From: Clostridia bacterium
Lineage (GTDB): Bacteria > Bacillota > Clostridia > Oscillospirales > CAG-272
Assembly (NCBI GenBank): GCA_017463485.1
Contig: JAFTPD010000002.1
Location: 321,870 to 385,869 of the forward strand
Direction: 5' to 3'
Length of the DNA stretch: 64,000 nucleotides
Part shown: piece after piece, positions 5,159 to 46,621 of the stretch
Numbering within the stretch: the first letter of the stretch is position 1
Layout of the letters: the number at the start of each line of letters is the position of its first letter
The notes under the pieces: generated by a model
Told to the model about the DNA's origin: nothing
The model's database searches: none
What the model saw: only the letters and a program-made list of their open reading frames with translations
Program-made: the position numbers and the translations under genes

Positions 5159-5169
5159 AAAAACCTCTC

Positions 5170-14461: not shown

Positions 14462-14479
14462 TTTCCTTACCTCTTCTGA

Positions 14480-17831: not shown

Positions 17832-19114
17832 ATCTTTCCCCTTTCCTGTTTATCGGGTAGCACCGACAGCACGCTCGCCTCCAACCGACCGTCGGAGAGG
17901 CGCAAGGTTATCTTATCGTCTTGACGGACACACGACACAGAATCAAGCACACGTCCGTCCTCCCTCTCGGCAATAGCATAGCCGCGTGTCAACACGCCAA
18001 GCGGTGAGAGTGAATGAAGCCGCGCCGCCATGGATTCCAGCAATCTGCGCCGAATGTCCAGCTCCCGTCGGACAGCCGCACCCATAGCTCTGTCCAATCG
18101 GTCAACGGTTATTTTCCACTCGCCGTAAACCGCCGTCGGCGCTTCAAGCGCGCGTGAGGATGCGAGGGACTTGACCTGTCTTTTTTCAAGCTCGATTTTT
18201 CCATTTACACTTGACAGCATGGAATTTTTTATATACAGCAAGCGTTTTCTTAATTCCTCGCTGTCGGGAACGGCAATTTCAGCCGCCGCAGACGGAGTTG
18301 CCGCACGTAGATCGGCTACGAAATCGCATATTGTAAAATCCACCTCGTGTCCAACGGCGGAGATCACGGGAATATCGCAATCGGCTATGGCACGAGCCAA
18401 TTTTTCGTCGTTGAAGGACCAAAGATCCTCCATTGAACCACCGCCGCGACCTATGATTATCACATCAACGCCGCGCGTGGGATCGTCCTTCATAGCGTTA
18501 AAATATTTGACTCCGCCCGTAAGGTACGTCGCCGCCCGCTCACCCTGCACGGGTGCCGGAAAGATCAATATCCTTGCCTGCGGATATCTGCGACGGGAAA
18601 CCTTGATGATATCCCTCACCGCCGCGCCGTCGGGTGAAGTTATAACGCCTACGGTGCGAGGAAATTTCGGTATTGGTTTTTTGCGCGAGATATCGAAAAG
18701 TCCTTCCGCCTCTAAGCGTTTTTTCAGTTGCTCAAAGGCTACGGCAAGGCTGCCTGCGCCGTCAGGCACAAGGTCCTCGGCGTAAAGCTGATACTGTCCG
18801 TCGCGGACGTAGGATGATACCTTGCCGTGAAGCAGTACCTTCATTCCGTCCTCGGGGACGAAATCCAGCTTCTGTGCCGCATAGCGGAACATTACCGCGC
18901 GGATAAGCCCGCCCTCGTCCTTGAGGGAAAAGTAGAGGTGTCCTGTGCGATAGTGGTTGGTGAAATTTGATATCTCCCCTTTTACCCACACGTCGCGCAG
19001 TACCGTGTTTCCGTCCAGGAGCATTTTTATATATTCGTTGACTTGGGTGACGGTGAACGCCGCCTCGCGCGAGGCTTGGCGATCATTGCCGTCCACGCTG
19101 TATCTGACAGCCAT
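17828..19114 (-). CDS. xseA: Exodeoxyribonuclease VII large subunit
   Basis: The OB-fold N-terminus is VWVKGEISNF. The motifs GVITSPDGAAVRDI and IIIGRGGGSMEDLWSFNDE are present. Confidence 0.9.
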   Translation of the reverse strand: MAVRYSVDGNDRQASREAAFTVTQVNEYIKMLLDGNTVLRDVWVKGEISNFTNHYRTGHLYFSLKDEGGLIRAVMFRYAAQKLDFVPEDGMKVLLHGKVSSYVRDGQYQLYAEDLVPDGAGSLAVAFEQLKKRLEAEGLFDISRKKPIPKFPRTVGVITSPDGAAVRDIIKVSRRRYPQARILIFPAPVQGERAATYLTGGVKYFNAMKDDPTRGVDVIIIGRGGGSMEDLWSFNDEKLARAIADCDIPVISAVGHEVDFTICDFVADLRAATPSAAAEIAVPDSEELRKRLLYIKNSMLSSVNGKIELEKRQVKSLASSRALEAPTAVYGEWKITVDRLDRAMGAAVRRELDIRRRLLESMAARLHSLSPLGVLTRGYAIAEREDGRVLDSVSCVRQDDKITLRLSDGRLEASVLSVLPDKQERGKI

Positions 19115-20926: not shown

Positions 20927-21011
20927 TATGTAGTAACCGTGTGCATTTTGGCACAATTCAGACGCGGCGACAACGCCGTAATTTATCTGAGAAAAGGAGT
21001 TGGGAGTCCAA

Positions 21012-22424
21012 ATGGACGGGGATAGTACGTTACTTTTGATTTTTATAGTCTGCGTTGCCCTCAGTGCGTTCTTCTCTTCATCTGAAAGCAGCTTTGCTAC
21101 AATGAACAAGATACGCATCAAGCAAAAGGCTGACGACGGCAATAAAAAAGCAAAAAACGCGCTTTTTATTTCGAACAATTACGACAAGGCAATTACCACC
21201 TTGCTCATTGGTAACAATATTGTCAATATTGCCGCTTCGTCGGTTGCGACAATTTTTGCTCTGAATCTTTTCGAGAACTACGCGGGGCTTACCAATGAAA
21301 CCGCTAATCTGCTTACAACACTTGTTACTACGGTAATCATTTTCCTCTGCGGCGAAATGATACCCAAGAGCTATGCCCTTGACAAGAGTGAAACGGTTGC
21401 GCTTCGCAGCGCAGCACCCATGCGCTTCCTTATGAAGCTTTTGCGCCCGTTTACCTTTATTTTCAACGGTATTACAACTCTGGTGTCAAAGCTCTTTAAG
21501 GCTGAAAACCTTCCCACTATCACGGAGGACGAGCTGAAGGACATCATCACCACTGCCGAGGAAGAAGGCGTTGTGGACGAGGAGCAAAGCGATCTATTGA
21601 TGTCTGCAATTCAGTTTTCGGGCACTACTGCCGCTAACGTAATGACTGCGAGAGATCAGATAATTGCGATCAGCGCGGATATTTCCCGCGAGGATCTGCT
21701 CGCTCTTATCCAGACCGCCAATCACTCCCGCCTACCCGTTTACGAGGGCGATATCGACCACATTATCGGCTATTTGCAGACACGCACGTATCTGCGCGCT
21801 TACCTCAAGGATGAGGACGTGAACATCCGCGATATTCTCATTCCTCCCTTCTTTGTAAGCCCCGACGCGAAAATCGACGATCTGCTGACGGTAATGCGCC
21901 AGCATAAGTTCTACATGGCTGTGGTCAGCGAGACCTGCGGCGGCGAGGATATCGACGGCACGGGTACTGTTGAATCGGATGTCGCTCCCTGCGAGAGCAC
22001 CCTCGGTATCGTTACCATCGAGGACTTCCTTGAGGAGCTTGTGGGCGATATATGGGATGAGTCCGACGAGATCGACCACACGTTTACCAAGCTTGGCGGT
22101 AACAAGTACAAAATAGATACTCACCTTACCGTGGCAGAGGCATTCGCACGTATGAATTGCCCCGAGCCCGAGGCGAGAATAGCAAAGATCCCGCTTCTTG
22201 CGTGGATCGTGCAGGAATTCAAGCACATTCCCGAGCTTGACGAATCCTTTGAATACGGCAACATGGAGATCACCGTTGACGAGATCGACGGTCACCGTGT
22301 AAGCTATATTACCGTTAAAATAGACGTTTCCTCCTCTGCCACGGAGGGCGAGGCGGATGAGGAAAATACTTCCGATACTCCCGCCGCCAGCGACGAGAAG
22401 GCTGATAAGGAGGTGTCCGTATGA
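21012..22424 (+). CDS. CNNM/DUF21-CBS-CorC_HlyC family membrane protein (hemolysin-family / Mg-Co efflux-like), copy 1
   Basis: The N-terminal DUF21 TM region includes a GEMIPKS motif. A CBS pair and a CorC C-terminal domain follow, then an acidic tail. Confidence 0.8.
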   Translation: MDGDSTLLLIFIVCVALSAFFSSSESSFATMNKIRIKQKADDGNKKAKNALFISNNYDKAITTLLIGNNIVNIAASSVATIFALNLFENYAGLTNETANLLTTLVTTVIIFLCGEMIPKSYALDKSETVALRSAAPMRFLMKLLRPFTFIFNGITTLVSKLFKAENLPTITEDELKDIITTAEEEGVVDEEQSDLLMSAIQFSGTTAANVMTARDQIIAISADISREDLLALIQTANHSRLPVYEGDIDHIIGYLQTRTYLRAYLKDEDVNIRDILIPPFFVSPDAKIDDLLTVMRQHKFYMAVVSETCGGEDIDGTGTVESDVAPCESTLGIVTIEDFLEELVGDIWDESDEIDHTFTKLGGNKYKIDTHLTVAEAFARMNCPEPEARIAKIPLLAWIVQEFKHIPELDESFEYGNMEITVDEIDGHRVSYITVKIDVSSSATEGEADEENTSDTPAASDEKADKEVSV

Positions 22425-23734
22425 TAGTTCCTTATCTTATAATCATTGCCGTTATGATAGTGCTTTCCGCTTTCTTCTCGGCAAGCGAGATGTCCTTCAA
22501 CTTTGCGAACAAGTCAAGGCTGAAAAAGGCGGCTGAGGACGGTAAGAAGACCGCCCGTGTGGCGTATTACATCACCGAGCACTTTACGTCCGCGCTGTCT
22601 GCTATACTTATCGGCAACAACCTTGTAAACATAGCGGCATCCTCATTTGGTACGCTGCTGTTTCTGGAGCTGTTTGATCAGAACGCCGCGCTTGCGTCCG
22701 TTGTTGCCACCGCTTCCATCACGCTTATCGTACTGATATTTGGTGAGATCGCCCCCAAGGTGATAGCACGTCAGCACGCTGATAAGCTTGTGCGCTTCTT
22801 TGCGTTTCCTATCCGAGTACTCACAATTATATTCACGTATATCATTCCCCTCGGCTCGCTGGCTACGGGAATGGTAAAGCTGGGGCGAAAGATTTGGGGT
22901 ACGGACAACGACGAGGACACTCCCACCGTTACCGAGGATGAGCTTTCATCCATTATCGACACGGTCGAGGAGGAAGGCGTTATCGACGAGGAAAAGAGTG
23001 AGCTGCTTCAGTCCACTCTTGATTTCCCCGACACAAACGTCGAGGAAATCATGACCCCCAGAATCGATATCGTAAATATCGACATTGACGACGACCCCGC
23101 CGCTATCAGGCAGATCATAACCGAGTCGCGCTACTCGCGCATCCCCGTGTATGAGGACAATATCGACAACATTATCGGTGTTCTCTACCTCAATCACTAC
23201 TACAAGGCTCTTGCAAAATTCAAGGCGGATGGACTTGATCCCGAGACCTTGGATATCCGCTCGCTTATCGTCGAGCCGCCCTTCATTTACAAATCCATGA
23301 AGCTTCCTGCCGCTCTTGCCACCATGAAGGAGAGCAAGATGCACCTTGTCGTCGTAACCGACGAGTTCGGCGGAACATTGGGTATCGTTACTATGGAGGA
23401 CATTCTTGAGGAGCTTGTGGGTGATATCTGGGACGAGTCGGATGAGATCGTCGAGATGATCAACAAGATCGGCGACAATATCTACGAGGTAAAGGGCGAT
23501 ATGAATATCGACGACCTGTTTGCCGAGATAGAATTTGACGCCGAGGTTCACGATTTTGAATGTGAATACTCCACCGTTGGCGGTTGGGCGGTTGAAATGC
23601 TCAACGACGCACCTAAGGTGGGTGATAGCTTCAACTACGAGAACCTCTGCATTATCGTCAACGATATGGACGATATGCGTGTTACCAGCCTTACGGTGCT
23701 TGTAACTCCCGTTGAGGAAGAAACGGAAGAATAA
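22421..23734 (+). CDS. CNNM/DUF21-CBS-CorC_HlyC family membrane protein, copy 2
   Basis: The architecture matches copy 1 (GEIAPKV, CBS pair, IVTMEDILEELVGDIWDE). The start overlaps the copy 1 stop (ATGA). Confidence 0.8.
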   Translation: MIVPYLIIIAVMIVLSAFFSASEMSFNFANKSRLKKAAEDGKKTARVAYYITEHFTSALSAILIGNNLVNIAASSFGTLLFLELFDQNAALASVVATASITLIVLIFGEIAPKVIARQHADKLVRFFAFPIRVLTIIFTYIIPLGSLATGMVKLGRKIWGTDNDEDTPTVTEDELSSIIDTVEEEGVIDEEKSELLQSTLDFPDTNVEEIMTPRIDIVNIDIDDDPAAIRQIITESRYSRIPVYEDNIDNIIGVLYLNHYYKALAKFKADGLDPETLDIRSLIVEPPFIYKSMKLPAALATMKESKMHLVVVTDEFGGTLGIVTMEDILEELVGDIWDESDEIVEMINKIGDNIYEVKGDMNIDDLFAEIEFDAEVHDFECEYSTVGGWAVEMLNDAPKVGDSFNYENLCIIVNDMDDMRVTSLTVLVTPVEEETEE

Positions 23735-34228: not shown

Positions 34229-36541
34229 TTATTTAGTGGTTATGCGAAGTCCGTCCGAGTCGGCGTCAAGCAATATCATACCTACACCGTTTTTGTAAGC
34301 CGAAATTATTGTTTCCGCCACGGGATCCTCCACGTTGCGCTGAATATATCTGCGCATATTGCGCGCGCCGAATTTGACGGAATAGGATTCCTCGGCGATA
34401 TATTTTGCCGCCGCGGGAGTATATTGAAGGGTGATCTGCTTTTCTTCAAGCGACGATTTCAACTCGTCCAGCATAATAGACGCGATCCGCGCAAAATCCT
34501 CTTGGCACAGCGAGCGGAAAGTGATTATTTCGTCCACTCGGTTGATGAATTCGGGGCGCAGGAAGCCTGAGAGCGCCTTCATTGTCGCACTCTCCTCCAT
34601 GGAATGAAGTCCGTCGGAAAAGCCTACCACAGCACCCGAGCGATCCGAGCCCGCGTTTGTGGTCATAACGATCACGGTATTTTCAAAATTGACCGTTTTG
34701 CCGTGGGCGTCAGTCAGCCGTCCGTCGTCAAGTATCTGGAGCATGACGTTAAGCACGTCAGGGTGTGCCTTCTCTATCTCGTCAAAGAGGACGATTGAGT
34801 AAGGACGGCGGCGTATCTTCTCGGTAAGCTGTCCCGCGTCGTCGTAGCCGACGTATCCGGGAGGTGAGCCGATAAGTCGGGACACCGATTCGCGGCTCAT
34901 AAACTCCGACATATCAAGTCGGACAAGCGTTTCGGGTGAGTGGAAAAGGTCTGCCGCAAGCGTTTTTACAAGCTCGGTCTTACCTACTCCCGTGGGTCCT
35001 GCGAATATAAAGGACACCGGCTTTTTCTTATAGCTGACTCCCGCACGGTTGCGTTTGATGGCTCTTGCCACGGCGCTAACCGCCTCGTCCTGACCGACGA
35101 TACGGCGCTTGATACGCTCCTCCAGCTTATCCACCTGCTCAAACTCGTTTTCGGTCACGGTGGTAGCGGGAACACCCGTCCACACTTCAATCACAAGTGC
35201 AAGCTCGTCCGCAGTGAGAGTAATGCCGTTACACTCAGGCTCGATCTCGCCAAGACGGGCAGACAATTTCAGCTCCTCCGCCTTGATGGAGGCAAGCTCC
35301 TCGTATTTCTTTCTGTCATCAGCATCTGCACTTTCCGCGCTCTCAATAGCCTCTCTTTGTTCCTTGAGGCGAAGCAGCTTATCTCTTATCTCATACGACT
35401 CGTTAAGCGTTGCATTTGACAGCGACGCATGCGATGCCGCCTCGTCAAGCAGATCGATCGCCTTGTCGGGCAGATATCTGTCAGTGATATATCTTTCCGA
35501 CATAATGACCGCGCGGCGGAGAAGTTCCTCGGGTATTGAAACGGCGTGGAATTCCTCGTAATAATGCTTGATGCCTTTAAGCATTTCCACGGTTTCCTCA
35601 AGGGACGGCTCAAGCACCGTAACGGGCTGGAATCGTCTTTCAAGAGCTGTATCCTTTTCGATATACTTGCGGTACTCCGTCAGCGTGGTCGCGCCGATTA
35701 TCTGCACCTCGCCGCGGGAGAGCGCGGGCTTCAAGATATTCGCCGCGTTGACACTTCCCTCCGAATCACCCGTTCCGACGATATTATGCACCTCGTCGAT
35801 AACGAGAATGACGTTGCCCTCCGACTGCACCTCGGATAGAAGTCCGAGAATACGCGACTCAAACTGTCCTCTGAACTGCGTACCCGCAACGAGCGCGGTT
35901 AGGTCAACGAGATATACCTCTTTATTTTTGAGCTTGTACGGCACGTTACCGTCGGCGATAAGCATAGCAAGCGCCTCTGCGATAGCCGTTTTACCAACTC
36001 CCGGCTCACCGATAAGGCAGGGATTATTTTTCTGTCGGCGGCAGAGTATCTGCACGACTCTTGCAAGCTCGCGGTCGCGTCCTACGATCCTGTCAAGGCG
36101 TCCTTCACGCGCCATTTGCGTGAGGCAACGGCAATAGGTGGTAAGATATTTCAGCTTTTTCTCCTTACCCTTCGCTCCTTTTTTTGCACCGCCCTTATTA
36201 TTCATACCCTCAAAGGGTACTACGTTAGCGCCCATATCAGCACCGGGGATAATTCCACCGTCGCCAAAGAGCTTGGGCAGATCTATCGCAGGCGCGCCGC
36301 CGTCCTCGTTGTCGTCGTTATCCGAGGGAGTCATGAACTCACTCAGCCCGTCCTCCATAGATTCCAGCTGCTCGGGACTGATACCCAGCTGACCTGCCAT
36401 ATCACCGAGCATATTATTTACGGGTATCCCCGCTTCCTTTGCGCATTTTATGCAAAGTCCCTCGCTTGAGCGCTGTCCGTTTTCCATTCTGGACACGAAC
36501 ACCACCGCAAGCCTTTTATGACATTTAGAACACATTACCAT
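34229..36541 (-). CDS. Class I Clp/Hsp100 AAA+ ATPase (ClpC/ClpA-like, two AAA modules) with Cys4 N-terminal ribbon instead of Clp_N repeats
   Basis: The Walker A motifs are GEPGVGKTAIAEAL and GPTGVGKTELVKTL. A short middle coiled coil is present. The N-terminus is CSKCHKRLAVVFVSRMENGQRSSEGLCIKC. Confidence 0.85.
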   Translation of the reverse strand: MVMCSKCHKRLAVVFVSRMENGQRSSEGLCIKCAKEAGIPVNNMLGDMAGQLGISPEQLESMEDGLSEFMTPSDNDDNEDGGAPAIDLPKLFGDGGIIPGADMGANVVPFEGMNNKGGAKKGAKGKEKKLKYLTTYCRCLTQMAREGRLDRIVGRDRELARVVQILCRRQKNNPCLIGEPGVGKTAIAEALAMLIADGNVPYKLKNKEVYLVDLTALVAGTQFRGQFESRILGLLSEVQSEGNVILVIDEVHNIVGTGDSEGSVNAANILKPALSRGEVQIIGATTLTEYRKYIEKDTALERRFQPVTVLEPSLEETVEMLKGIKHYYEEFHAVSIPEELLRRAVIMSERYITDRYLPDKAIDLLDEAASHASLSNATLNESYEIRDKLLRLKEQREAIESAESADADDRKKYEELASIKAEELKLSARLGEIEPECNGITLTADELALVIEVWTGVPATTVTENEFEQVDKLEERIKRRIVGQDEAVSAVARAIKRNRAGVSYKKKPVSFIFAGPTGVGKTELVKTLAADLFHSPETLVRLDMSEFMSRESVSRLIGSPPGYVGYDDAGQLTEKIRRRPYSIVLFDEIEKAHPDVLNVMLQILDDGRLTDAHGKTVNFENTVIVMTTNAGSDRSGAVVGFSDGLHSMEESATMKALSGFLRPEFINRVDEIITFRSLCQEDFARIASIMLDELKSSLEEKQITLQYTPAAAKYIAEESYSVKFGARNMRRYIQRNVEDPVAETIISAYKNGVGMILLDADSDGLRITTK

Positions 36542-36663
36542 GTATATTGACCTCTTTTCGTGGGTAGATCCTGATTTATTGAGCCGTGCTCAACATTATA
36601 TTTTAACACCTTCACAATAACTAATTATGAACAAATTAAAAATCATCTGCAAAATCCATCGCA

Positions 36664-37539
36664 TCAAGAGCGAATTTTATGCGTGTTTCGATATTTTACG
36701 GGAGTCATTCCCTTTATTTTCTTAAATATCTTGCCAAAATATGAGGCGCTTGAAAAGCCTGTCGCGGCGGAAATTTCATCGACCGACAGCTCACTGCCCA
36801 AAAGCATATTTGCCGCCTGCTCCACGCGTAGAACGTTCACGTACTCATTTACTGTGCAGTTGAAATATTTTCGGAAATCCCGATACAGCACGCTCTTGGA
36901 AATATTTACCCCTGCCGAGATGCTTTGGATGGACAGCTCCTCGGTGCAATTTGCATTTATATAGTCCGTCGCCTTTTCGATATTTGAGCTGTATTTCAAC
37001 TCCAGCATATCCTCAAGCAGAATATATTTTGACAGCATTACGGCAACGTTGATGATACTCTCCGTCTTTTGCTCGTCAAAATAACGCAGCTTTTCATAAT
37101 ATTCCTTCAAATTATCGAGTGAAACTCCAAGGTCCTTGACGCGCTCGGCTATCTCCGAAAAATCCGTTTCGTTGCGCAGCTCTCCGAGTATGATATAGCC
37201 TATCAAGGAGCCGTCGTGATAAAGCGGAACGGCAATATCGGTAAGCCCCGCGTGGCAAACATGACGCACTGCTATCTGTTGCTCGGAGCATTTTTCCAAA
37301 AGGCAGTAGTCGGAGTTTTGGCAAGCGCGCATTCCCGCATCGCTCTTGTGGATCTCATGGCAGAAATCCGACTGCCTTGAGTGGTCAAGGAACATATATA
37401 TGCAGGAACAATCCGCTCTGCGGAGAGCAATATTTACACCCGTAGCGTTGTAAAAATCCTGAAATGCACGCGCTATTTTTTCGGTATTGTAATTTATGAT
37501 CAAAGCCGTCACCGCCTTCCTGCAAATATTATACACCAA
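36664..37539 (-). CDS. AraC-family transcriptional regulator with N-terminal PocR sensory domain
   Basis: The PocR-type Cys pattern is FCHEIHKSDAGMRACQNSDYC...VCHAGLTDIAVPLYHDGSLIGYIILGE. The C-terminal AraC HTH region is SISAGVNISKSVLYRDFRKYF...FSSASYFGKIFKK. Confidence 0.8.
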   Translation of the reverse strand: MVYNICRKAVTALIINYNTEKIARAFQDFYNATGVNIALRRADCSCIYMFLDHSRQSDFCHEIHKSDAGMRACQNSDYCLLEKCSEQQIAVRHVCHAGLTDIAVPLYHDGSLIGYIILGELRNETDFSEIAERVKDLGVSLDNLKEYYEKLRYFDEQKTESIINVAVMLSKYILLEDMLELKYSSNIEKATDYINANCTEELSIQSISAGVNISKSVLYRDFRKYFNCTVNEYVNVLRVEQAANMLLGSELSVDEISAATGFSSASYFGKIFKKIKGMTPVKYRNTHKIRS

Positions 37540-37666
37540 AAGCGCAATTTTGTCAATACTTTCTCAAAATGCGGAATATAGTGCGAAAAAGTGGGAAATC
37601 AACACCTTGCGTATAGGAATGAAATGTGATAAAATTAAGTTAACAAACTTCAAGGAGGACGGGTTT

Positions 37667-39568
37667 ATGTATAAGCTTTCCGTACCAATATCACTCAAGT
37701 CGATAAACGACGATTCCATGAAAATTTTTCTGCGCGATTTCAAGGCTTGCGGAGTCAAACGGGTATTCATCTGCGGTCTCGGATACATATTTGACCCGAA
37801 CGACCATTGTTACACTCATGCCCACGTGCTTCAAAGCGCTATTAACACCTTCCGTGAAAACGGCTACGAGGTTGGCGTTTGGATAAGCGCATTCGGCCAC
37901 GGAGTTGCGCTCTCTCACATGGTAGAGGAATTCGACCTCAGCAGATACACCGATATCGAGGGTATCGGCGGCGACAAGCGCTCGCACGCCTTTTGCCCGC
38001 TGGACGAGAATTTCAGACATGATTACGCAGAAGGTGTCAAGCACATCGCACGTATGCATCCCGATATCATAATGCTGGATGACGATTTCCGCCTTAATAC
38101 GCGCGGATATTATTTCGGTTGCTTCTGCAAAAAGCACGTTGCGGAGTACTACAAGCGTCTGGGAGAGGAAGTCCCCCGCTCCGAGCTTGAGCGACTGATG
38201 TTCACGGGCGGTAAAAACAAGTACCGCTCCGAGTGGATGAGGCTCTCGTCCGACACCCTGCTTGATTTCGCGAAAATGCTTCGCGCAGAGGTGGACAAAA
38301 TCTATCCCGACATCCGCCTCGGTGCATGTACCACGGGAGAAAACTGGGACTTTGCGGCAAACGCTATTGAGGTGGCAAAAGCCTTTGCAGGCAATAGTAC
38401 CTTGCCCTTTACCCGAACTGCGGGCGCACCTTATTGGAGTCCTATGGTATCCGACGCCATTGAGGACACCAGAATGCAGGTTGAGTGGTGTAGCGGCACG
38501 GGTGTCGAGGTATTTGCTGAAGGCGACACCTATCCCCGTCCCCGATATATTGTCCCCGGACGACGCCTTGAGGCGTTTGATCTTGCTCTTATCGCTGACG
38601 GAACTGCCGACGGCGACTTGAAGTATATGTACGAGTACATAAACAAGCCCGAAAACGAGCGCGGCTACGTACAGCGCCACATCAAAAATGAAAAGCTCCG
38701 CGAGGAGGTAAGTGCGCTGTTTGACGGAAAAAGCGCGGTCGGCGTGCGCTCGCTGAACATAATGCGCCGCATTGAAAATATGATCATGCCCGACACCATA
38801 GAAATAGTTCAGCCCGCAACCAAGCTTGCACAGTACGTACGGAGCGCAAGCCGCCTGCTCCTGTCCCGCAACGGTATTCCCACGAGCTACACAAGCGGCG
38901 GATATTACCCCATATTCCTATACGGCGAGAACGCAAGATACGTTACCGCTGATGACCTTAAAAACGGCGCGATACTCGATATTCCCGCCGCCAAAGCACT
39001 CGCGGATATGGGAATTGACACGGGACTTATTTCAGAGGAAGCAGCTAACTTTACGGGCGAGCGTTTCCCCGATGCCGACGACTCGGTAATGGGCTTGGGG
39101 GGTATTGCTCTCAAGCGTATCGCTTGCTCGGACAAGGCAAAGGTACTCAGCACCTTTGTTCCCGACGGCACGCCATCTGCGTACACTTATGAGAACAAAA
39201 ACGGTCAGCGCTTCCTCGTTATCGCTCACGACGGATATCGCTCATGTCTCAGCGGCTCGGCGAATTTCTACAACAGCTACTACCGTCAGGAGCAGCTCAT
39301 ATTAGCTATTGAATGGCTGGGCGGTAAAAAGCTCCCTGCAGTATGCCCGAAGGCTCCCTATCTCTATCTTCTAACCTCAGTTGGCGGCGGCGCTATGTCT
39401 GTGGCTCTCGTCAACAGCTATGAGGACGACGTGATCGACCCCGTGGTACAGCTTGACCGCGAATACAGCGAGATCAAGTTCGTAGGCTGCGACGGACGGC
39501 TCGAGGGCGACAAAGTCTACCTTTCCGATATATCACCCTACGGCTTTGCGGCGTTTGAGGTAAAGTGA
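37667..39568 (+). CDS. Hypothetical 633-aa cytoplasmic protein, possibly a TIM-barrel glycosyl-hydrolase-like enzyme
   Basis: The ATG at 37667 lies 8 nt after an AAGGAGGA. The ORF-track start at 37496 overlaps the araC gene. The segment AFCPLDENFRHDYAEGVKHIARMHPDIIMLDDDFR resembles GHL-type barrels. The family is not identified. Confidence 0.45.
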   Translation: MYKLSVPISLKSINDDSMKIFLRDFKACGVKRVFICGLGYIFDPNDHCYTHAHVLQSAINTFRENGYEVGVWISAFGHGVALSHMVEEFDLSRYTDIEGIGGDKRSHAFCPLDENFRHDYAEGVKHIARMHPDIIMLDDDFRLNTRGYYFGCFCKKHVAEYYKRLGEEVPRSELERLMFTGGKNKYRSEWMRLSSDTLLDFAKMLRAEVDKIYPDIRLGACTTGENWDFAANAIEVAKAFAGNSTLPFTRTAGAPYWSPMVSDAIEDTRMQVEWCSGTGVEVFAEGDTYPRPRYIVPGRRLEAFDLALIADGTADGDLKYMYEYINKPENERGYVQRHIKNEKLREEVSALFDGKSAVGVRSLNIMRRIENMIMPDTIEIVQPATKLAQYVRSASRLLLSRNGIPTSYTSGGYYPIFLYGENARYVTADDLKNGAILDIPAAKALADMGIDTGLISEEAANFTGERFPDADDSVMGLGGIALKRIACSDKAKVLSTFVPDGTPSAYTYENKNGQRFLVIAHDGYRSCLSGSANFYNSYYRQEQLILAIEWLGGKKLPAVCPKAPYLYLLTSVGGGAMSVALVNSYEDDVIDPVVQLDREYSEIKFVGCDGRLEGDKVYLSDISPYGFAAFEVK

Positions 39569-39593: not shown

Positions 39594-40448
39594 ATGAATG
39601 CATTTCTTCTTATTTCAACCATCACGACACTGACCTTGCAAAACGTGATAATGAAGGCGTACAGCAAGCGCGGACGAGGCGGATCGTTCAGCTTTGCAAG
39701 CATTGGCGCACTTGCGGCGCTGATAGTGTTTATTATCGCGTCGGGAGGCAAGCTGAATTTCAACGCCGCTATAATTCCCCATTCCATTGCCTTTGCGGTG
39801 TCCTACTGCACAGCTCTTGTCGGCACCTTCCTCGCCGTGCGCGAGGGTCCGCTCTCCCTTACCAGCCTTATTACGTCTTATTCGCTGATCGTGCCAACTC
39901 TTTACGGACTTATATTCGGCGGCGAGGATATCAGCGTTCTGCTTATAATCGGTCTTGCGCTTTTGCTTATCTCGCTTGTATTTATCAATCTCAAAAGCAA
40001 AAATGACGAGAAAAAGATAAGCGCAAAATGGGTATTTTACGTTCTTCTCGCATTCGTGGGCAACGGTATGTGCTCTACCGTCCAAAGAATTCAGCAGGAA
40101 AATGGCTGCGCGGTTTACAAAAACGAATTTATGATAATCGCCCTGCTTATTTCCGCCGTTGCGATATTTATCTGCGCGCTTCTGACCGAAAGGAAAAGCA
40201 CCTTTGCTAACTTAAAGGATGCCGCGCCCTACGCAGCCTCCCGCGGAATTGCCAACGGACTTACCAATCTTTTCGTGCTTTTACTTACGCCGCGTATGCC
40301 CGCGTCGGTCATGTTCCCCCTGATCTCCGCAGGCGGAATAGTTGCCACGGTGCTGATCTCAATTTTCGTTTACAAGGAAAAGCTGTCCTTGCAGGAAAAG
40401 ATAGGCGTTATTATCGGTATCGCCGCGATAGTAGTTCTGAATATATAA
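39594..40448 (+). CDS. DMT-superfamily (EamA-like) 10-TM transporter
   Basis: The 284-aa product has two similar five-helix halves and follows the preceding gene by 25 nt. Confidence 0.6.
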   Translation: MNAFLLISTITTLTLQNVIMKAYSKRGRGGSFSFASIGALAALIVFIIASGGKLNFNAAIIPHSIAFAVSYCTALVGTFLAVREGPLSLTSLITSYSLIVPTLYGLIFGGEDISVLLIIGLALLLISLVFINLKSKNDEKKISAKWVFYVLLAFVGNGMCSTVQRIQQENGCAVYKNEFMIIALLISAVAIFICALLTERKSTFANLKDAAPYAASRGIANGLTNLFVLLLTPRMPASVMFPLISAGGIVATVLISIFVYKEKLSLQEKIGVIIGIAAIVVLNI

Positions 40449-40449
40449 C

Positions 40450-40492
40450 AAAAGCCACGCCGCGCTGAAATCAGCGCGGCGCGGCTTTTGCG
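40450..40492. repeat. Hairpin terminator and left copy of the island-bounding inverted repeat
   Basis: The 25-nt core CGCCGCGCTGAAATCAGCGCGGCGC lies at 40458-40482 and the tail CTTTTGCG at 40485-40492. The reverse complement recurs at 46085-46118. Confidence 0.8.
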
Positions 40493-40496
40493 TTAT

Positions 40497-40967
40497 TCAA
40501 TCAATTTTATGTTTTTCCTTTCTGTCAGCCAAGTTCTTTCCAAGTCTATACAGTAACCAAGATATAATCGGGCTTGCAAAGACAAGTACCTCTACGATTT
40601 TAAAATCTAACATAGCAACCGGTGCAAAAATGGGAATATAGATTTCAAAAAGCCTTGATGCATAAGCTATAATAACTAATGCAGAAATGGAAATCGATAT
40701 CCAAACACAGAGCTTGGCTCCGCCGCACAGCTTACGTTCCGATAAATAATTTATCTGAAACAGAAACAAAAGCTGTGACAGAAAACACGGAATGCACATA
40801 AGTAAAAAGAACCCAAAAATAAATTCATTACCGAATATATCATCCCGGACCGGAGAAAGTATTATTTCCTTGTAGCCATCTACAACAAGATATATATCTA
40901 CGCCTATAAACAAAGCGGCGGATATTAAAACAGGTAGTTTTTTTCTGATAGTATGCATTATATTCAT
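40497..40967 (-). CDS. Hypothetical 156-aa polytopic membrane protein (4-5 TM), low-GC island gene 3
   Basis: The ORF is AT-rich and follows a GGGGGA RBS. Hydrophobic segments include LPVLISAALFIGVDIYLVV, FIFGFFLLMCIPCFLSQLLFLF and VWISISISALVIIAYA. Confidence 0.6.
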   Translation of the reverse strand: MNIMHTIRKKLPVLISAALFIGVDIYLVVDGYKEIILSPVRDDIFGNEFIFGFFLLMCIPCFLSQLLFLFQINYLSERKLCGGAKLCVWISISISALVIIAYASRLFEIYIPIFAPVAMLDFKIVEVLVFASPIISWLLYRLGKNLADRKEKHKID

Positions 40968-41011
40968 ACATAATCCCCCATAATTGCAAGTAGATTATTA
41001 CGAGCGGTACT

Positions 41012-41791
41012 TTATGGATAAGTCGGTTCGTCCAGACCGTATTCGTCGCAGATATCGTCAATCATTACAGTCAGGCCGAGAGTACAAGGAATATACCACA
41101 CATCTTCCTCCCCTATAGCATCATTTTTGATACGTATGTAGTACTTACCATCACAAACATATATGTTTGCTTCCCAATAGATCTCCTCGTATTCTTTAAA
41201 TGAAAAGCGTAGCATCAGGTACTCATGTTCATCATTCAGTATGGGAGTGGGCGACGAAACACCATCACGCAAATCCTTATACGTCAGATAATTTGCCTCC
41301 GCGTTTTCGATAGTTTTTGCTATCTCCTTGGCCAGCGGCTCAGGGATTTCCGTGAGTACTTGTTTTTCGGTTTTTTCACGATATAAGCACCAATCGTCGC
41401 CAGACGGATATCCGTCACTCAAAAACAGTTTAGCAGAAGATAAATCAAATGTCAGTTTTCCTTCAAAATCAACATGCTTTTTCACTGTAGGACCTACTGC
41501 AGGACCTATTCCGGTGCCGGTAACAACGCAAGCAACAAACTCATCTGTGGATACACCGTTAATCTTGTAATATCTCCTCCTCGGCACTCCGCACGCGCCA
41601 ATCATTTTAGATTCACACTCTTCCCAAACTATGTTATAGTCCAAAGAAATATAATTCTTTTCTTCAATATCATTTCCGGGGAATATTAGCGCAAAAAGCT
41701 GTACAAAAGGAATGGCTACTAAAATTAAAATCAATACTACCACCACAATGACTGAAATAATACAGCCATGTAGGACATCTAATTTTTTCAT
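41012..41791 (-). CDS. Hypothetical 259-aa membrane-anchored protein, low-GC island gene 2
   Basis: The N-terminus is MKK followed by a hydrophobic stretch of about 30 aa, then a soluble domain of about 220 aa. The ATG lies 6 nt after the upstream stop, and its GGAGGG RBS is inside the last codons of the upstream gene. Confidence 0.65.
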   Translation of the reverse strand: MKKLDVLHGCIISVIVVVVLILILVAIPFVQLFALIFPGNDIEEKNYISLDYNIVWEECESKMIGACGVPRRRYYKINGVSTDEFVACVVTGTGIGPAVGPTVKKHVDFEGKLTFDLSSAKLFLSDGYPSGDDWCLYREKTEKQVLTEIPEPLAKEIAKTIENAEANYLTYKDLRDGVSSPTPILNDEHEYLMLRFSFKEYEEIYWEANIYVCDGKYYIRIKNDAIGEEDVWYIPCTLGLTVMIDDICDEYGLDEPTYP

Positions 41792-41797
41792 GCTATT

Positions 41798-44700
41798 TTA
41801 TCCCTCCAGATATGAAATCCAATCATTTAATGCTCCATTCCTTATGGTATACATATGATTATATTTCCCTGTATAGACTTTGATATTATCCCCGCTTCTT
41901 CCCAATGTTGCACTCCAGCTTGGTACTAAACCATCGCCTATCGTATCTTCATAATTAATTTCTATTCCTCGCGAATACAAGTCCTGAGAAATTATCTCAA
42001 AATATCTTAGTTGAACAGTAGTTGCTACACCAGAAACACATATGTACTTGCTATTGGCACTATATGTAATATGTTTATTGTTTAACATACAACTATCATG
42101 AAAAGCTTCCGCTTCCGTCATTAATGTAGAATTAAAATGTGGCAAATAGCCAGATATCAATCTCATTGACGTTGCATAATCATCACATGGTGTTTCGGTG
42201 GTTTCCCCAACGAATGGAAGTATAGTGGATACATAATGAGTGAGATACGGCATTGAATTTGCAGACAAATAATATTCCGATGGGAACAACTCATATATAC
42301 TTGGATAATTGCTAAATAGTTTTTGTAATGGATCCGATGTTAGTGTCGAAACTGTAAGAACAGCATTTACAATATTAAGTGCATTTTCATAATCTCCACC
42401 CGCCAACGCAGATATATCTACATTAGCCCACACATTAATTACTTCAGGAGTGCCTAATAAAGGTGATGAAAGCATATAAACCTCTTCAACTTTATTTCGT
42501 TGTTCCTCACCTATTGCCATATAACCAGAAGAAACCAATCCTCCCATGCTGTGGGAAATGAGAATCACCTTGTCGTATCCACACTCATCAATAAACGCAT
42601 CCAATTTTTCAGCAGAGACAGTATTAGATAGACGCCAATCGTAAGAGAAAAACTCAATAGCATATTTTGATGTAATATCGGGATCGGAATACAATTCATT
42701 TATCAACTCATAATAAGAGTTCAACAAACCTGCATGCGGGGTGTAATATCGGCTATCATATGATGAAGGCAAGGTGTATATGGGGTTACTATGATCTGTA
42801 TCGTTATCAGCATATGTGGGTTGCACATAAACATATTTTTTTGTATAAACATCATATTTGGATAAACCATTATCATTGCAAGATAGTGTATCGTAAAACA
42901 TATTTGCAAATGTAACTGTTGGAATACCTGTCACAGGCAAACTCAAAACATATGCAGCGATCAAATTTGAAATATCATCACTGTCTAACGACTGAGATAT
43001 CATGGAAAGCGTATTAACCATATCTTGATTAATAATAGGGGCATGTTCTTTAAAATAGGGATTATTTTCTCCAACAAATAATTCACTTGCGAAAATCCCT
43101 GGTACAATAATTATAGCTTGTTTATTTACCTTAATGTTGAACGTCCTTGTCAATCCCGTAGTCTTATGCGTAGCCAAAACGGCTGCAGTGCCCGGGGCTA
43201 CTCCCGTGAATCTATGAGTACTTGCATCGTATGTTACGTACTGGCTACCCGAAGTTATAGTATAGTCAAAATCGCTATAGGCTATCCAAAAGCCATTCAG
43301 AGGGGCGTTAATTGAGGCGGTAACCGTATCGTCGATATCTATTGCAAGATCATAAAAGCCGAGGGTTGAACTGGGCTCACAATAAATATCTTCTAAAACA
43401 ATACGCCAAGCTTGTTTTGAGTAGCCATCCGTATCTACGGCATACAATGCCTTGGTGGAGATAGACGATGGGTTGGTTGCCTGATCGGAGGCATATAAAT
43501 ATTTACCGTTGGATTTGTTTTGTATCAGAACTCCCCCGCCTGACACAGCAGTACTTATTGCCCATTTATATATGTCGGGTATAGTTTCCGAGGAATCATT
43601 ATATACTCTTACACCGCTTGAACTTTCGGTACTTGCAGAAAGATAGTATCCCGGAACGTCCGCACGTTGAATCGTACAATATCCATCGCCCAAATTAACT
43701 ATTTTCCACTTTACAGTATCGTCACCTATAGTTGATAACAACCCTCTTTGGCAATTTGCATAGGAATTTGACCAATGGAGATACTTTCCGATAGATCTAT
43801 TGGTTAGATAATAACAGCCTGTTTCGATAGCCGACCGATACTCGGACATATATACTTCTTCATCATTATCGTCAAAAATGTACCACATTTGATAGTAATT
43901 AGACGTATCAAGTGTTTGAACGAATATGTTGCCGGGAGAATCGGCGGTAGTTCCTGTGTTCGTACCGTTAGACGATTCATTTGCGGTCAATGCCAGCGCC
44001 ATATTTGAACGAGGAACGACCCTAAACACATACCTGTTTACCGGAACTACAAACCATTCTTGGGATATCGGATCGGTGGCTGAATATATTTGAACGTTCC
44101 TACCGCTGTATATTTCCCCACCTGATCGTTGTATACTAAGAACTTTGTCGGTTCCGGATGACGAGCTCATGGAACGGAAAAGATATGCGCCCGTTGACGC
44201 AACGTATTCCAGCTTAAACTTTTGTTCGGTGGTTGCAATTTCACTACTGTTTTCGACTTGATATACGTTTGAGTTATTAGCCGGTTCTGCACCGTTAACA
44301 GTCATATATGAACGGCTACCGCCATTTTGGAAAGAATATACCCCTCCATCCAACATCCCTGCGGGAAGTGTGTATCCGTATCTTACTTTTAGTGCAGGGC
44401 GCAGCTCCGGAGTCGTACATTCAGAACTGTAAAACGGTCGTATGAACGTATCGTCATCATCATCTTCCAGTCCTATAATAAAATCGCCCTCATAGCTATC
44501 ATTGTACCTTATTTCGTATTCCTCATCAGAATACATGCTATATATATGTGGTGTGAAATCAAATGTCACTTGTGTGACATTTGAAGCTACGGTACAATAT
44601 GTTACAAACTTATATCCATTAGTTGCCATTTGATAATCATAGCTTTCGAAATCAGAATATCCAACAAAATATCCTGCTTTCATACCGATATCCTTCGAAG

Positions 44701-45937
44701 GTCCGGATTGCAGATTTAATACCAGTTCTGCGCCGATTATAGGCATTGATTGATCTATTACGGGCAATTTTTTAATTCGTATAACTGCTTTTCGACGATC
44801 GCCATTATTCTTGTGGGTAAAATACATATACTGCGAAGCAGAATGATCTGTTGTGGAGTTTTCTTGCACATAGGTATCTTCAATATTTGCAACATAATCT
44901 CCCGTAGTAATAGACGGGTCGAGTAATATTGGAAAGACACGTTCAGACGAACCAAACCATTCAGAATCTGGAGTATATATGATTGTGCAAATATCGCCGT
45001 CTTTTTTTGCCGTTACACTAACGTCGTAGCAGATCTCAAATTCCGCATCCATCATATACGGTATACCAATGCGAAATTGCATAACTCCGTCGCCATCTAC
45101 AAGGTCGACGCTTCCGTTTTCATTTACAACAGGCGAAAGCGTACCGATATTCATATTCATGGATACCGATTGAATATCGCTTCTTTCGGAAATGATAATG
45201 TCTTCTTCAATCTTGTTGTGATATACGGTATACTTCAAAGAAACGTTTTGCTCATTAGTAAAAGCATTGTTATAGTGAATTTGCGATGAAACGTTAGGCA
45301 AATAATACGAATCATCATCAGTCACCAAACGGTCAGAGGGGGTGCTATACTCTATTTTCGTGCTGTTTATCGGCTGAGCCTTGACATCAGCCGACGGAGA
45401 TACTGTCAGATTTGCGGTGCCACCGTTAATTTGTTCTATTTGCGCATAGGAGGCTACTGCTGTTTCGATATTAGCATTTTTTGACGTTTGAATTCCCCAT
45501 GATAAAGTATATCCGTTACGCTCTATCCGTGCAATATTTGTTGAAGAAGCACTTTCGGAAAAAGAAACTTCAAAATCAGAATTCCCGCTTTTATACGTTT
45601 TTGTCGCTGAATCGTAAGTCAGCGATTGGTCGACGTCTTGCCAAGAATTGTTCGCGTCGAGATAGTGAACCGCCTCGGGATACGTCACCGAAACATACGT
45701 GCCGTCCGAGCAAAGATAATGCTTCTCAAACTGTCCGCGCTTGGAAACGTCTTCTTCAACAATGAAAACGTCTTGTTTGACTGAATCGCCGCCGTTTGAA
45801 ACTACTTGTTCCGGCAGTTCCGACGTGTCGGCGTTTTCATTGTCTAAGACAATAGCCTGTGCAGGCAACGTGACGAATATCATCACCAAAGACATCAACA
45901 GGGCGATAATTTTCACTTTGAAATTAACTTTTTTCAT
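41798..45937 (-). CDS. 1,379-aa secreted multidomain protein: signal peptide, beta-sandwich region, 2 x ricin-type beta-trefoil, Ig-like module, C-terminal LCAT-type alpha/beta-hydrolase (lipase/acyltransferase)
   Basis: The ATG at 45937 follows an AAAGGAG, and the signal sequence is MKKVNFKVKIIALLMSLVMIFVTLPAQA. Six QxW-type subrepeats are present (QKF, QEW, QMW, VKW, YKW, QAW). The YDWR motif lies at 42632-42643 and ISHSMGG at about 42539-42556. Confidence 0.8.
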   Translation of the reverse strand: MKKVNFKVKIIALLMSLVMIFVTLPAQAIVLDNENADTSELPEQVVSNGGDSVKQDVFIVEEDVSKRGQFEKHYLCSDGTYVSVTYPEAVHYLDANNSWQDVDQSLTYDSATKTYKSGNSDFEVSFSESASSTNIARIERNGYTLSWGIQTSKNANIETAVASYAQIEQINGGTANLTVSPSADVKAQPINSTKIEYSTPSDRLVTDDDSYYLPNVSSQIHYNNAFTNEQNVSLKYTVYHNKIEEDIIISERSDIQSVSMNMNIGTLSPVVNENGSVDLVDGDGVMQFRIGIPYMMDAEFEICYDVSVTAKKDGDICTIIYTPDSEWFGSSERVFPILLDPSITTGDYVANIEDTYVQENSTTDHSASQYMYFTHKNNGDRRKAVIRIKKLPVIDQSMPIIGAELVLNLQSGPSKDIGMKAGYFVGYSDFESYDYQMATNGYKFVTYCTVASNVTQVTFDFTPHIYSMYSDEEYEIRYNDSYEGDFIIGLEDDDDDTFIRPFYSSECTTPELRPALKVRYGYTLPAGMLDGGVYSFQNGGSRSYMTVNGAEPANNSNVYQVENSSEIATTEQKFKLEYVASTGAYLFRSMSSSSGTDKVLSIQRSGGEIYSGRNVQIYSATDPISQEWFVVPVNRYVFRVVPRSNMALALTANESSNGTNTGTTADSPGNIFVQTLDTSNYYQMWYIFDDNDEEVYMSEYRSAIETGCYYLTNRSIGKYLHWSNSYANCQRGLLSTIGDDTVKWKIVNLGDGYCTIQRADVPGYYLSASTESSSGVRVYNDSSETIPDIYKWAISTAVSGGGVLIQNKSNGKYLYASDQATNPSSISTKALYAVDTDGYSKQAWRIVLEDIYCEPSSTLGFYDLAIDIDDTVTASINAPLNGFWIAYSDFDYTITSGSQYVTYDASTHRFTGVAPGTAAVLATHKTTGLTRTFNIKVNKQAIIIVPGIFASELFVGENNPYFKEHAPIINQDMVNTLSMISQSLDSDDISNLIAAYVLSLPVTGIPTVTFANMFYDTLSCNDNGLSKYDVYTKKYVYVQPTYADNDTDHSNPIYTLPSSYDSRYYTPHAGLLNSYYELINELYSDPDITSKYAIEFFSYDWRLSNTVSAEKLDAFIDECGYDKVILISHSMGGLVSSGYMAIGEEQRNKVEEVYMLSSPLLGTPEVINVWANVDISALAGGDYENALNIVNAVLTVSTLTSDPLQKLFSNYPSIYELFPSEYYLSANSMPYLTHYVSTILPFVGETTETPCDDYATSMRLISGYLPHFNSTLMTEAEAFHDSCMLNNKHITYSANSKYICVSGVATTVQLRYFEIISQDLYSRGIEINYEDTIGDGLVPSWSATLGRSGDNIKVYTGKYNHMYTIRNGALNDWISYLEG

Positions 45938-46026
45938 TTCGTACTCCTTTCTGTTTTTTGTCAATATTCTCCACATTACGGCAATACGTTGCAATAATCT
46001 TGCCTCGCATATCGTAGTGCAACCTG

Positions 46027-46055
46027 ATTATACCATAAATTACCACAAAAGTCAA
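46027..46055 (-). promoter_or_regulatory. Consensus sigma-A-type promoter of the island operon
   Basis: The minus strand reads TTGACT, 17 nt, TATAAT, with a TGg extended -10, about 85 nt upstream of the ATG at 45937. Confidence 0.7.
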
Positions 46056-46084
46056 TACCTTAACGAGATATTTTGTGCAAAAAG

Positions 46085-46125
46085 CGCAAAAGTGCGCCGC
46101 GCTGATTTCAGCGCGGCGCACCATT
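46085..46125. repeat. Hairpin terminator after cvpA and right (inverted) copy of the island-bounding repeat
   Basis: The tail CGCAAAAG lies at 46085-46092 and GCGCCGCGCTGATTTCAGCGCGGCG at 46094-46118. This is the exact reverse complement of the 40458-40482 core. The stem has 14 bp. Confidence 0.8.
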
Positions 46126-46132
46126 TATTATT

Positions 46133-46621
46133 TTACATGCTTGATATTTTATCTGCAATAAAGCCGAAAATGTTGATATCGTGAAAAAGCTTGAACAGGA
46201 AGGAATTTTCGTAGATATCCATATTTCCCGAGAGGTAGACGTAGCCGTAAAAGATCGCCGAGATAAAGCTACACAAAAGCGCCGCGCTGACAACTCCGAG
46301 GGCAACGCCGAGCAGCTTATCTGCGGTGGCAAAGATAGATTTTTCAATCAGCTTGGAAAGCACATTTGCAAGCAGGGTAAGTCCCACGAACACTGCCGCG
46401 AACAAAATGATATACCCCAGCACTGCGGAAAATGCACCGCCGGCACCTCCGAGCATATCGATTATCACTCCCGAAAGCACGGGACCAAGCAAAGCAGTAA
46501 TTATAAACGTCAGCACCAGCCGTCCCAGCTTCAGGGCGGATTTTACAAATCCTGCGCGGTAATATTTGAACACCGTAAAGCCGATTATCACCGCAAGCAC
46601 AAGGTCAATGGTTATATTCAT
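46133..46621 (-). CDS. cvpA: CvpA-family membrane protein
   Basis: The 162-aa product has 4 TM helices. The N-terminus is IDLVLAVIIGFTVFKYYRAGFVKS. Confidence 0.75.
   Translation of the reverse strand: MNITIDLVLAVIIGFTVFKYYRAGFVKSALKLGRLVLTFIITALLGPVLSGVIIDMLGGAGGAFSAVLGYIILFAAVFVGLTLLANVLSKLIEKSIFATADKLLGVALGVVSAALLCSFISAIFYGYVYLSGNMDIYENSFLFKLFHDINIFGFIADKISSM

Follow-up and report, generated by a model that had tools for sequence, protein, structure and literature searches.

GxSxG lipases directed against the membranes of neighbouring cells are familiar from the Tle/Tli pairs found in type VI secretion systems (T6SS) and from TslA/TilA of the Staphylococcus aureus type VII secretion system (T7SS), where the lipase is neutralised by an adjacent membrane-anchored or lipoprotein immunity factor. 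Tle1 is encoded together with its immunity gene (PMC12135965). Sec-exported polymorphic toxin systems (PTS) of Gram-positive bacteria (PMC3482391), with S8-PTS (PMC9424270), are laid out as a signal peptide, binding or adhesion domains, a variable toxin end and an immunity gene. RicinB is among the adhesion domains listed for polymorphic toxins, in which alpha/beta-hydrolase lipase toxin domains and DUF4329 (Tox-JAB-2) have also been catalogued already (PMC3482391; PMC9424270). WapA of Streptococcus suis combines a Sec signal and a following N-terminal DNRLRE/CBM96-type domain with a downstream immunity gene (PMC12704120). Here we analysed a 64,000-nt stretch of the chromosome of an uncultured member of the Oscillospiraceae (positions 321,870 to 385,869 of contig JAFTPD010000002.1, assembly GCA_017463485.1; hereafter the window) and, within it, a low-GC island of about 5.6 kb that carries three minus-strand genes, genes 1 to 3, between an EamA-family transporter gene and cvpA. 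In our view the island is likely to be a toxin-immunity cassette of the polymorphic-toxin type, self-contained and gained by horizontal transfer.

The locus shares the layout of the Sec-exported systems, running from a predicted signal peptide through lectin domains and a variable toxin end to a candidate immunity gene. Unlike the described PTS and S8-PTS, the island has no S8 peptidase gene, BetaH domain, RHS, LXG or HINT module, or recognisable processing motif. The trunk of the gene 1 protein is built of an N-terminal region, in which relatives have CBM96/DNRLRE, followed by three beta-trefoils and Big_2. With Tle and TslA the gene 1 product has in common a GxSxG serine lipase, of predicted activity here; it differs from them in an export that apparently needs Sec alone, in lectin-mediated targeting, in the lack of T6SS or T7SS genes nearby and in the LCAT/PGAP1-like type of the lipase. 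Gene 2 matched the known Tli or TilA proteins neither in sequence nor in fold. The family resembles WapA in its Sec signal, N-terminal domain and downstream immunity gene, but unlike WapA and Rhs proteins it lacks Rhs/YD repeats, a LysM domain and an associated sortase, and CBM96 was seen only in homologues of the window protein. The toxin-immunity class is therefore one that is already known. What appears new is the trunk family, the gene 2 fold and the palindrome-duplicating insertion, none of which we found described in the literature searched.

The lectin-lipase protein and its relatives

Gene 1 (41798-45937, minus strand) encodes a lipase-type protein of 1379 amino acids (aa) that is predicted to be secreted, whose domains were delimited with Pfam and an alignment of 27 homologues. 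The N-terminus, MKKVNFKVKIIALLMSLVMIFVTLPAQA, is hydrophobic over aa 3-32 and on direct reading looks like a Sec-type signal peptide (aa 1-28, cleavage after AQA). The conserved N-terminal region extends over about aa 30-520. CBM96/DNRLRE was detected there only in more distant homologues, the CBM96 match of gene 1 itself falling below the Pfam reporting level; CBM96 is a polysaccharide-binding module (PMC9971899). Ricin-type beta-trefoil lectin domains follow at about aa 530-860 (RicinB_lectin_2, three stretches, 1.4e-17 in Pfam), and against the PDB this lectin region matched weakly a 'binary toxin A-like protein' (8bad, E = 0.007). A Big_2-like Ig domain at about aa 870-945, with the motif ATHKTTG...F.I.V, closes the trunk.

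The C-terminal part (about aa 946-1379) is an LCAT/PGAP1-like alpha/beta-hydrolase lipase with the motif GHSMGG, scoring 34.4 bits for Pfam LCAT (cutoff 21) and 26.5 bits for PGAP1 (cutoff 24.3). Among the 27 lipase-type homologues, LCAT matched 25 and PGAP1 all 27. GHSMGG (S1130), D1335, H1361 and YDWR (1099-1102) were invariant across these full-length sequences, as were the nucleophile-elbow residues H1129-S1130-x-G1132-G1133. Ser1130, Asp1335 and His1361 form a predicted catalytic triad that is intact, the Asp and His being assigned by conservation and not by structure. The profile of the 27-homologue alignment matched a putative lipase in the PDB (7x2p, 2e-8) together with designed and natural beta-trefoil proteins. 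PADLOC gave no defence-system match, apart from a weak LmuA hit (E = 0.0045) on the hydrolase nucleophile region, and an NCBIfam scan of the island proteins returned nothing meaningful.

Gene 1 had 154 relatives in the protein database, the closest outside its own lineage being 57% identical. Relatives that share the lipase aligned over their full length at 34-57% identity, and about two thirds of the relatives listed covered just the first 64-69% of gene 1. Sliding identity was about 50-55% along the trunk whatever the C-terminus, up to about aa 945, and fell to background beyond that point in the non-lipase types. The trunk, i.e. the first ~945 residues, is common to more than 150 proteins of gut and rumen Clostridia. 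When the regions after the Ig motif were clustered, 84 members separated into 12 unrelated C-terminal classes. Those named by Pfam were DUF3289, DUF4329, DUF6345, YkzU and a second lipase type (PGAP1/DUF676-like). DUF3289 has been confirmed by experiment as an antibacterial effector domain and has an immunity gene downstream; it has been proposed to be colicin M-like and to work outside the cytoplasmic membrane, in the periplasm (PMC12135965). DUF4329 is the Tox-JAB-2 of the polymorphic toxin catalogue (PMC3482391). Three features by which polymorphic toxins are recognised were found in this family: a shared N-terminal region with unrelated C-termini, an adjoining downstream gene that varies with the toxin type (eight loci), and, by sequence reading, an export signal.

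Family members occupy varied chromosomal sites, beside bipA, prfC, lexA or a padR operon, and all lie below the local GC. One of them (P0029, locus L042) stands between genes typical of conjugative elements, namely a helicase/methylase-type protein of >3168 aa (1-5552; MutS_I, SNF2, ResIII) and DUF3848 and DUF3991/Toprim_2 genes (13733-15463), surroundings that are a possible vehicle for the toxin family. In two other genomes, the toxin gene at the ksgA-bipA locus (L010 1520-7311, L013 544-6449) is preceded by a gene for a GH25 muramidase and by one of about 1440 aa without a Pfam match, perhaps as part of a larger cluster for attack on the cell envelope. In L013 (12933-13097), a fragment of 38 residues with 92% identity to residues 791-828 in the trunk of another family member, P0006, lies downstream of the candidate immunity gene; it looks like the scar of a cassette replacement by recombination.

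Gene 2 as a candidate immunity gene

Gene 2 (41012-41791, minus strand) encodes a membrane-anchored protein of 259 aa, characterised by its open reading frame (ORF), its HMMER family and an AlphaFold2 model. A single N-terminal hydrophobic anchor spans aa 1-42. A word-based protein search retrieved gene 2 itself only. With an exhaustive HMMER search, 34 representatives of 230-370 residues were found among 1.84 billion proteins. Many of these relatives carry a lipobox/lipoprotein signal instead of the anchor; with either a membrane anchor or a lipobox, the family is expected to face outward.

We examined which gene directly follows the toxin gene at eight loci, using the family profile. In each of the four lipase-type loci, namely the window, L010, L013 and L014, a gene 2 family member came directly after the toxin gene; this was so in none of the four non-lipase types, where other small genes were present. 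Relatives do occur elsewhere: at the DUF3289-type locus L016 the gene 2 relative is second, after a translationally coupled 173-aa gene, and at L039 it follows a polytopic membrane protein and not a lipase. Compared with the window, the lipase domain was 57% identical in L010, 49% in L013 and 34% in L014, and the corresponding gene 2 relatives were 33% identical, weakly matching, and found by the extended profile only. Gene 2 divergence thus runs in step with lipase divergence but is faster. Because its family directly follows the lipase-type toxins in four of four cases, gene 2 is likely the cognate immunity protein for the lipase. Divergence that tracks the lipase, together with occasional orphan copies, fits a cognate immunity protein and argues against a foldase.

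The gene 2 structure predicted by AlphaFold2 with a 32-sequence alignment was beta-rich, with a predicted local distance difference test score (pLDDT) of 90 and a predicted template modelling score (pTM) of 0.81; the single-sequence model was useless (pLDDT 39). Foldseek found no counterpart of the model in the PDB (best E = 0.13, TM <=0.16). Nor did gene 2 have any Pfam match at E = 0.01 or better, the lipase-chaperone family included. An operon of a lipase with a Lif-type foldase is not supported by these results: gene 2 falls outside the lipase-chaperone family, and its model is beta-rich and without a PDB match.

Gene 3 (40497-40967, minus strand) encodes a small membrane protein of 156 aa with about four hydrophobic helices by hydropathy. 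It had no Pfam, NCBIfam or PADLOC match, was the only sequence retrieved among 5.8 billion proteins in a word-based search, and was absent from the other family loci. Its product may act as an accessory protein or as a second immunity protein.

The empty site and the boundary palindromes

The initial annotation of the window, made by eye, had described a low-GC island with sharp boundaries at the terminator hairpins of the EamA-type transporter gene and cvpA, holding three co-directional minus-strand genes under their own promoter. Its hand counts were borne out by the computed profiles, all of which deviated strongly. The unique island DNA (40494-46083) has a G+C of 0.391, against 0.501 ± 0.011 (minimum 0.478) for other 5.6-kb windows of the 64 kb, and 500-nt windows gave 0.35-0.44 across 40500-46000 against 0.48-0.55 on either flank. 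The G+C at third codon positions (GC3) was 0.331, 0.385 and 0.351 for the three island genes, with 0.33 for gene 3, and 0.47-0.66 for the other 48 long ORFs. Since GC3 is also low, and the deviation sits at synonymous sites, the low GC is no side effect of amino-acid content. The tetranucleotide L1 distance between the island and the rest of the window was 0.448, more than 20 standard deviations beyond the 94 control windows (0.131 ± 0.014, maximum 0.171).

The gene layout likewise agreed with the earlier description. On the left, the EamA gene (39594-40448, plus strand; Pfam EamA 9.6e-10) ends with its stop codon at 40446-40448; on the right, cvpA, for a Colicin_V production family membrane protein (46133-46621, minus strand; Pfam Colicin_V 3e-16), has its stop codon at 46133-46135. 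Both are flanking core genes outside the island, and a hairpin lies directly 3' of each stop codon. The island's own strong sigma-70-type promoter, TTGACT-17 nt-(TG)TATAAT (46027-46055, minus strand), matches at 11 of 12 positions with a TG extension and is the best promoter-like site in the region. Reading from 46055 to 46027, about 80 nt of leader come after it, then the ribosome-binding site AAAGGAG and the gene 1 ATG at 45937. The junction of genes 1 and 2 reads TAA-AATAGC-ATG, with a GGAGG Shine-Dalgarno sequence within the last codons of gene 1; the 6-nt gap and this position fit co-translation, as the coupling proposed earlier would have it. No tRNA was found near the island, and Pfam marks on contigs carrying the same locus revealed no integrase or transposase domain in it or within about 10 kb, again as first described. 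An Rfam gathering scan of the whole window returned no RNA family. We discarded a functional link between the island and cvpA (colicin V production), given that truA-DUF5711-cvpA is kept without a toxin in the sister species and in distant relatives.

It had been suggested to look in related genomes for an empty site in which only one hairpin separates EamA from cvpA, and this arrangement was found. A search with the neighbouring DUF5711 protein led to contig SVQX01000040.1 of the Oscillospiraceae metagenome-assembled genome SIG628 (locus L001), in which 16 kb can be aligned with both window flanks at 89-92% nucleotide identity, the level of a sister species. There EamA (96% identical to that of the window) adjoins cvpA, the two genes converging across 48 nt that hold one hairpin, and all three island genes are absent. 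The net difference between the filled and the empty site is 5637 nt. The truA-DUF5711-cvpA block is kept in six more distant Clostridia, with a toxin gene after cvpA in none of the six. The island is present, at 99.9-100% identity, in all six contigs with an identical EamA or gene 3 protein, which come from at least five samples, and these exact protein look-ups gave no empty or alternative state of the site in the window's own lineage. A metagenome scan with EamA for other site states yielded relatives of at most 55% identity only and was uninformative.

Composition, synonymous sites included, and the empty site support the proposal of a horizontally acquired module with its own promoter and without a mobility gene. 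Because the composition deviates, a fairly recent insertion in the window's lineage is favoured over a loss in the sister. Of the usual marks of a genomic island, deviating composition and an empty site in a relative were present, and mobility genes and a tRNA target were absent. The module had been called cargo of unknown delivery; the foreign module stands, and the cargo can now be identified as a lipase toxin type with a likely immunity gene. A search for the island elsewhere had also been suggested, and relatives of the toxin family did turn up at other loci and in other genomes. Plasmids and phages gave remote domain-level matches only, IMG/VR viral contigs no relative of the island, and peptide patterns no gene 1 relatives in species genomes.

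Two independent assemblies, L008 and L009, which differ in sample and in contig naming, end at the same base within gene 2 (window 41141), two further contigs (L037 and L038) begin at window 41152 and 41097, and the other L009 end lies inside cvpA at 46465. The shared ends suggest a recurrent branch of the assembly graph, e.g. a co-existing variant; no alternative sequence was found at the recurrent break near 41141.

The two boundary hairpins are copies of each other, a relation absent from the initial annotation. The left palindrome (40449-40492, 95% complementary) has a 20-bp stem, with the hairpin at 40449-40490, and reads CAAAAGccaCGCCGCGCTGA-aa-TCAGCGCGGCGcggCTTTTGCG; the EamA TAA precedes it, and 4 nt and then the gene 3 stop follow. 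Its outer half is host-derived, and its inner half plus CTTTTGCG lie on the island side. The right palindrome (46085-46121, 100% complementary) has a perfect 14-bp stem, with the minus-strand hairpin at 46092-46121, and reads CGCAAAAGtgCGCCGCGCTGA-tt-TCAGCGCGGCGcac; the junction reads CGCAAAAGtgCGCCGCGCTGA-tt-TCAGCGCGGCGcacCATTTATT and continues into the cvpA stop. Here the inner half plus CGCAAAAG lie on the island side and the outer half is host-derived. The empty site reads TAA-CAAAAActcaCGCCGCGCTGA-tt-TCAGCGCGGCGcacCATTTATTATTTTA, and its single hairpin is identical to the left palindrome core. As RNA the left copy folds at -35.9 and -40.9 kcal/mol (z = -7 to -8) and the right copy at -34.3 and -36.0 kcal/mol; the empty-site hairpin is weaker (-22 and -28 kcal/mol, against -34 to -41 for the window copies). 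A T-run follows each copy in both directions. From the T-runs and the strong hairpins at both ends, EamA, cvpA, gene 3 and island read-out all meet a terminator: the left palindrome is a bidirectional terminator for EamA (plus) and gene 3 (minus), and the right one a terminator for cvpA (minus) that also insulates the island promoter region.

The 23-nt palindrome core occurs exactly twice in the window, with 0 copies expected by chance, and the pair is the best long-range inverted repeat in the 64 kb. In 185,579 species genomes (one each), the only other Firmicute copy was the empty site. A REP-like (repetitive extragenic palindrome) family was dismissed, as there are only the two window copies and the other 15 genome matches lie in unrelated high-GC bacteria. 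Since the core is palindromic, the pair can be read as an inverted repeat (35-38 nt, identical loops, with a perfect 8-nt island-side extension CGCAAAAG/CTTTTGCG) or as an att-like direct repeat (about 33 nt, two loop bases flipped; 22 nt at 91% identity). Both readings would fit Campbell-type integration of a circle with a matching palindrome, and would equally fit a repair or duplication event at a cleaved palindrome. No flanking inverted repeats were found at the family loci L010, L013, L014 and L016, and the duplication is therefore no conserved cassette feature, nor is there a conserved hairpin borne by the cassette. No papers on a terminator-palindrome duplication at island junctions were found in the literature searched.

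Known mobile units account for the structure only in part. Cis-mobilizable elements (CIMEs) of Streptococcus and pdif modules of Acinetobacter plasmids are compact, recombinase-less units between two short, partly palindromic sites. Like them, the island is compact cargo without a recombinase, bracketed by two copies of a host-type palindrome. Unlike them, it has a site that does not resemble dif/Xer sites and no linked integrase, integrative and conjugative element or Xer-dependent element, and its movement is conjecture. An integron gene cassette was rejected (GTTRRRY in neither junction, no tyrosine recombinase nearby, a cassette with its own promoter), as was an insertion sequence or composite transposon: the 35-38-nt inverted repeat comes without a transposase, and its outer part, which the empty site has as well, is host sequence.

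Some further observations were made in the window. A second, milder low-GC patch (36250-37750; 0.41-0.46) spans a PocR/AraC-type regulator gene together with the spacer upstream of it. GC dips at the same place in the sister genome (L001 14250-15750), so the patch is ancestral and not part of the island. Adjoining EamA, a 690-aa ORF (37496-39568, plus strand) has no Pfam match and is 93% identical in the sister species; its start differs between assemblies (633 or 690 aa). A tRNA-SeC called by ARAGORN at 18356-18447 (minus strand) lies inside a 428-aa ORF (17828-19114), has no Rfam family there and is probably a false positive. A 105-nt direct repeat (22005-22109 and 23381-23485, 78% identity) is contained in two adjacent plus-strand ORFs (21000-22424 and 22421-23734), which are probably tandem paralogues.

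Alternative explanations and significance

The cassette could instead be a nutritional or surface-remodelling operon, in which a glycan-anchored secreted lipase or acyltransferase scavenges lipids and gene 2 is a membrane-anchored, lipase-specific foldase or chaperone, comparable to Lif of the Pseudomonas and Burkholderia lipases. The anchor and extracytoplasmic domain of gene 2, its position 6 nt downstream and its lipase-specific association are as expected of a foldase, architectures of lectin plus enzyme are common among carbohydrate-active and degradative enzymes, and the CBM96 of the relatives' trunk binds polysaccharide (PMC9971899). This explanation leaves unaccounted for the validated or predicted antibacterial toxin domains that the same trunk bears in relatives. 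Furthermore, gene 2 relatives persist without a preceding lipase gene (L016, L039), where a foldase would be useless and an orphan immunity gene is expected, and gene 2 has no match to the Pfam lipase-chaperone family. Lif is all-helical, unlike the beta-rich gene 2 model. We regard such an operon as quite improbable. A toxin or adhesin against eukaryotic cells (host epithelium, protozoa or fungi), with lectins that bind galactose-type glycans and genes 2 and 3 as unrelated membrane proteins, is very improbable. Ricin-type beta-trefoils are classic binders of eukaryotic glycans, the lectin region has its weak match to a binary toxin A-like protein, and LCAT-like enzymes act on eukaryote-type lipids. 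Against this, a lipase-specific, outward-facing downstream partner implies a need for self-protection, hence a target that the producer shares, and the DUF3289 of trunk relatives acts on bacteria.

A further explanation concerns the history of the site and not the function of its genes, namely that the cassette is ancestral and that the SIG628 lineage lost it when the palindrome copies, used as a 22-33-nt direct repeat, recombined. The copies do form a 22-nt direct repeat at 91% identity, a crossover in the left arm would yield exactly the single hairpin of L001 with the right-copy loop and right flank, and all contigs of the window's lineage carry the island. However, the island GC3 of 0.33-0.39, against about 0.57 in the host, indicates almost no drift and argues for a recent arrival, and the more distant relatives have no toxin gene after cvpA. 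There is, in our view, a fairly small chance that a deletion explains the empty site; even so the DNA would still have been acquired and only the timing would change.

We therefore return to the acquired toxin-immunity cassette, against which several points have to be counted. Toxicity, lipase activity and neutralisation are predictions from sequence, and the organism is uncultured. The topology and position of gene 2 are typical of lipase-specific foldases, and its relative at L016 can be read as an orphan immunity gene or as a sign that the family has a general accessory role. At the trunk/toxin junction of gene 1 no motif for processing or cleavage was seen, and the window has no orphan toxin-immunity array. 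Gene 3 is without a homologue and its role is a guess. The empty site belongs to a different species (89-92% identity), so that only composition speaks to the direction of gain or loss, and searches of plasmids, phages, viral contigs and the neighbourhood gave no donor, vector or recombinase for the island.

In the mechanism that we propose for the toxin-immunity cassette, the gene 1 protein would be exported by Sec, and its lectin domains would bind surface glycans or polysaccharide of a neighbouring cell. The C-terminal LCAT-like phospholipase would then attack the outer leaflet of the neighbour's membrane from outside. A lipase acting from outside fits the family, because the DUF3289 warhead has also been proposed to act outside the cytoplasmic membrane, and toxins that act on the envelope from outside need no import machinery. 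Gene 2, anchored in the producer membrane with its domain outside, would bind and block the lipase, and in this way producer and kin would be protected; gene 3 would be an extra membrane protein, possibly a second protection factor. The cassette would have entered, or been retained in, the lineage exactly at the shared EamA/cvpA terminator palindrome. Its arrival would have left one palindrome copy at each end, with all four transcription directions still terminated, and the inserting enzyme or vector is not encoded in the island.

The duplicated palindrome could also mark a recombinase-independent insertion, in which the terminator palindrome of two convergent genes, extruded or cleaved, took up foreign DNA. 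We consider this, jointly with what would follow from it, improbable. If it were true, repair would regenerate a complete and even stronger terminator on each side, the newcomer would be insulated from the start, and in Clostridia, toxin-immunity cassettes would in general find landing pads in the hairpins of convergent genes. Under the same joint reading, gut and rumen Firmicutes would have in the trunk family a polymorphic toxin system that is undescribed, Sec-dependent and lectin-guided, and in the gene 2 family an immunity fold without a solved relative. The base-by-base comparison of a filled and an empty site at a unique terminator palindrome is an unusually clean case in which to ask how islets free of mobility genes enter bacterial chromosomes.

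Little has been charted of contact-independent, Sec-secreted polymorphic toxins in the strict anaerobes among the Firmicutes, which are dominant in the communities of gut and rumen. With this locus a large family comes into view: more than 150 database proteins, none of them named, with a lectin trunk and at least 12 exchangeable warheads, several of which are predicted to attack the cell envelope from outside. The locus likewise reveals a candidate family of lipase immunity proteins, for which the confident model finds no match among solved structures. Cassettes of this kind probably influence how strains compete, and their toxin-immunity pairs can be tested.

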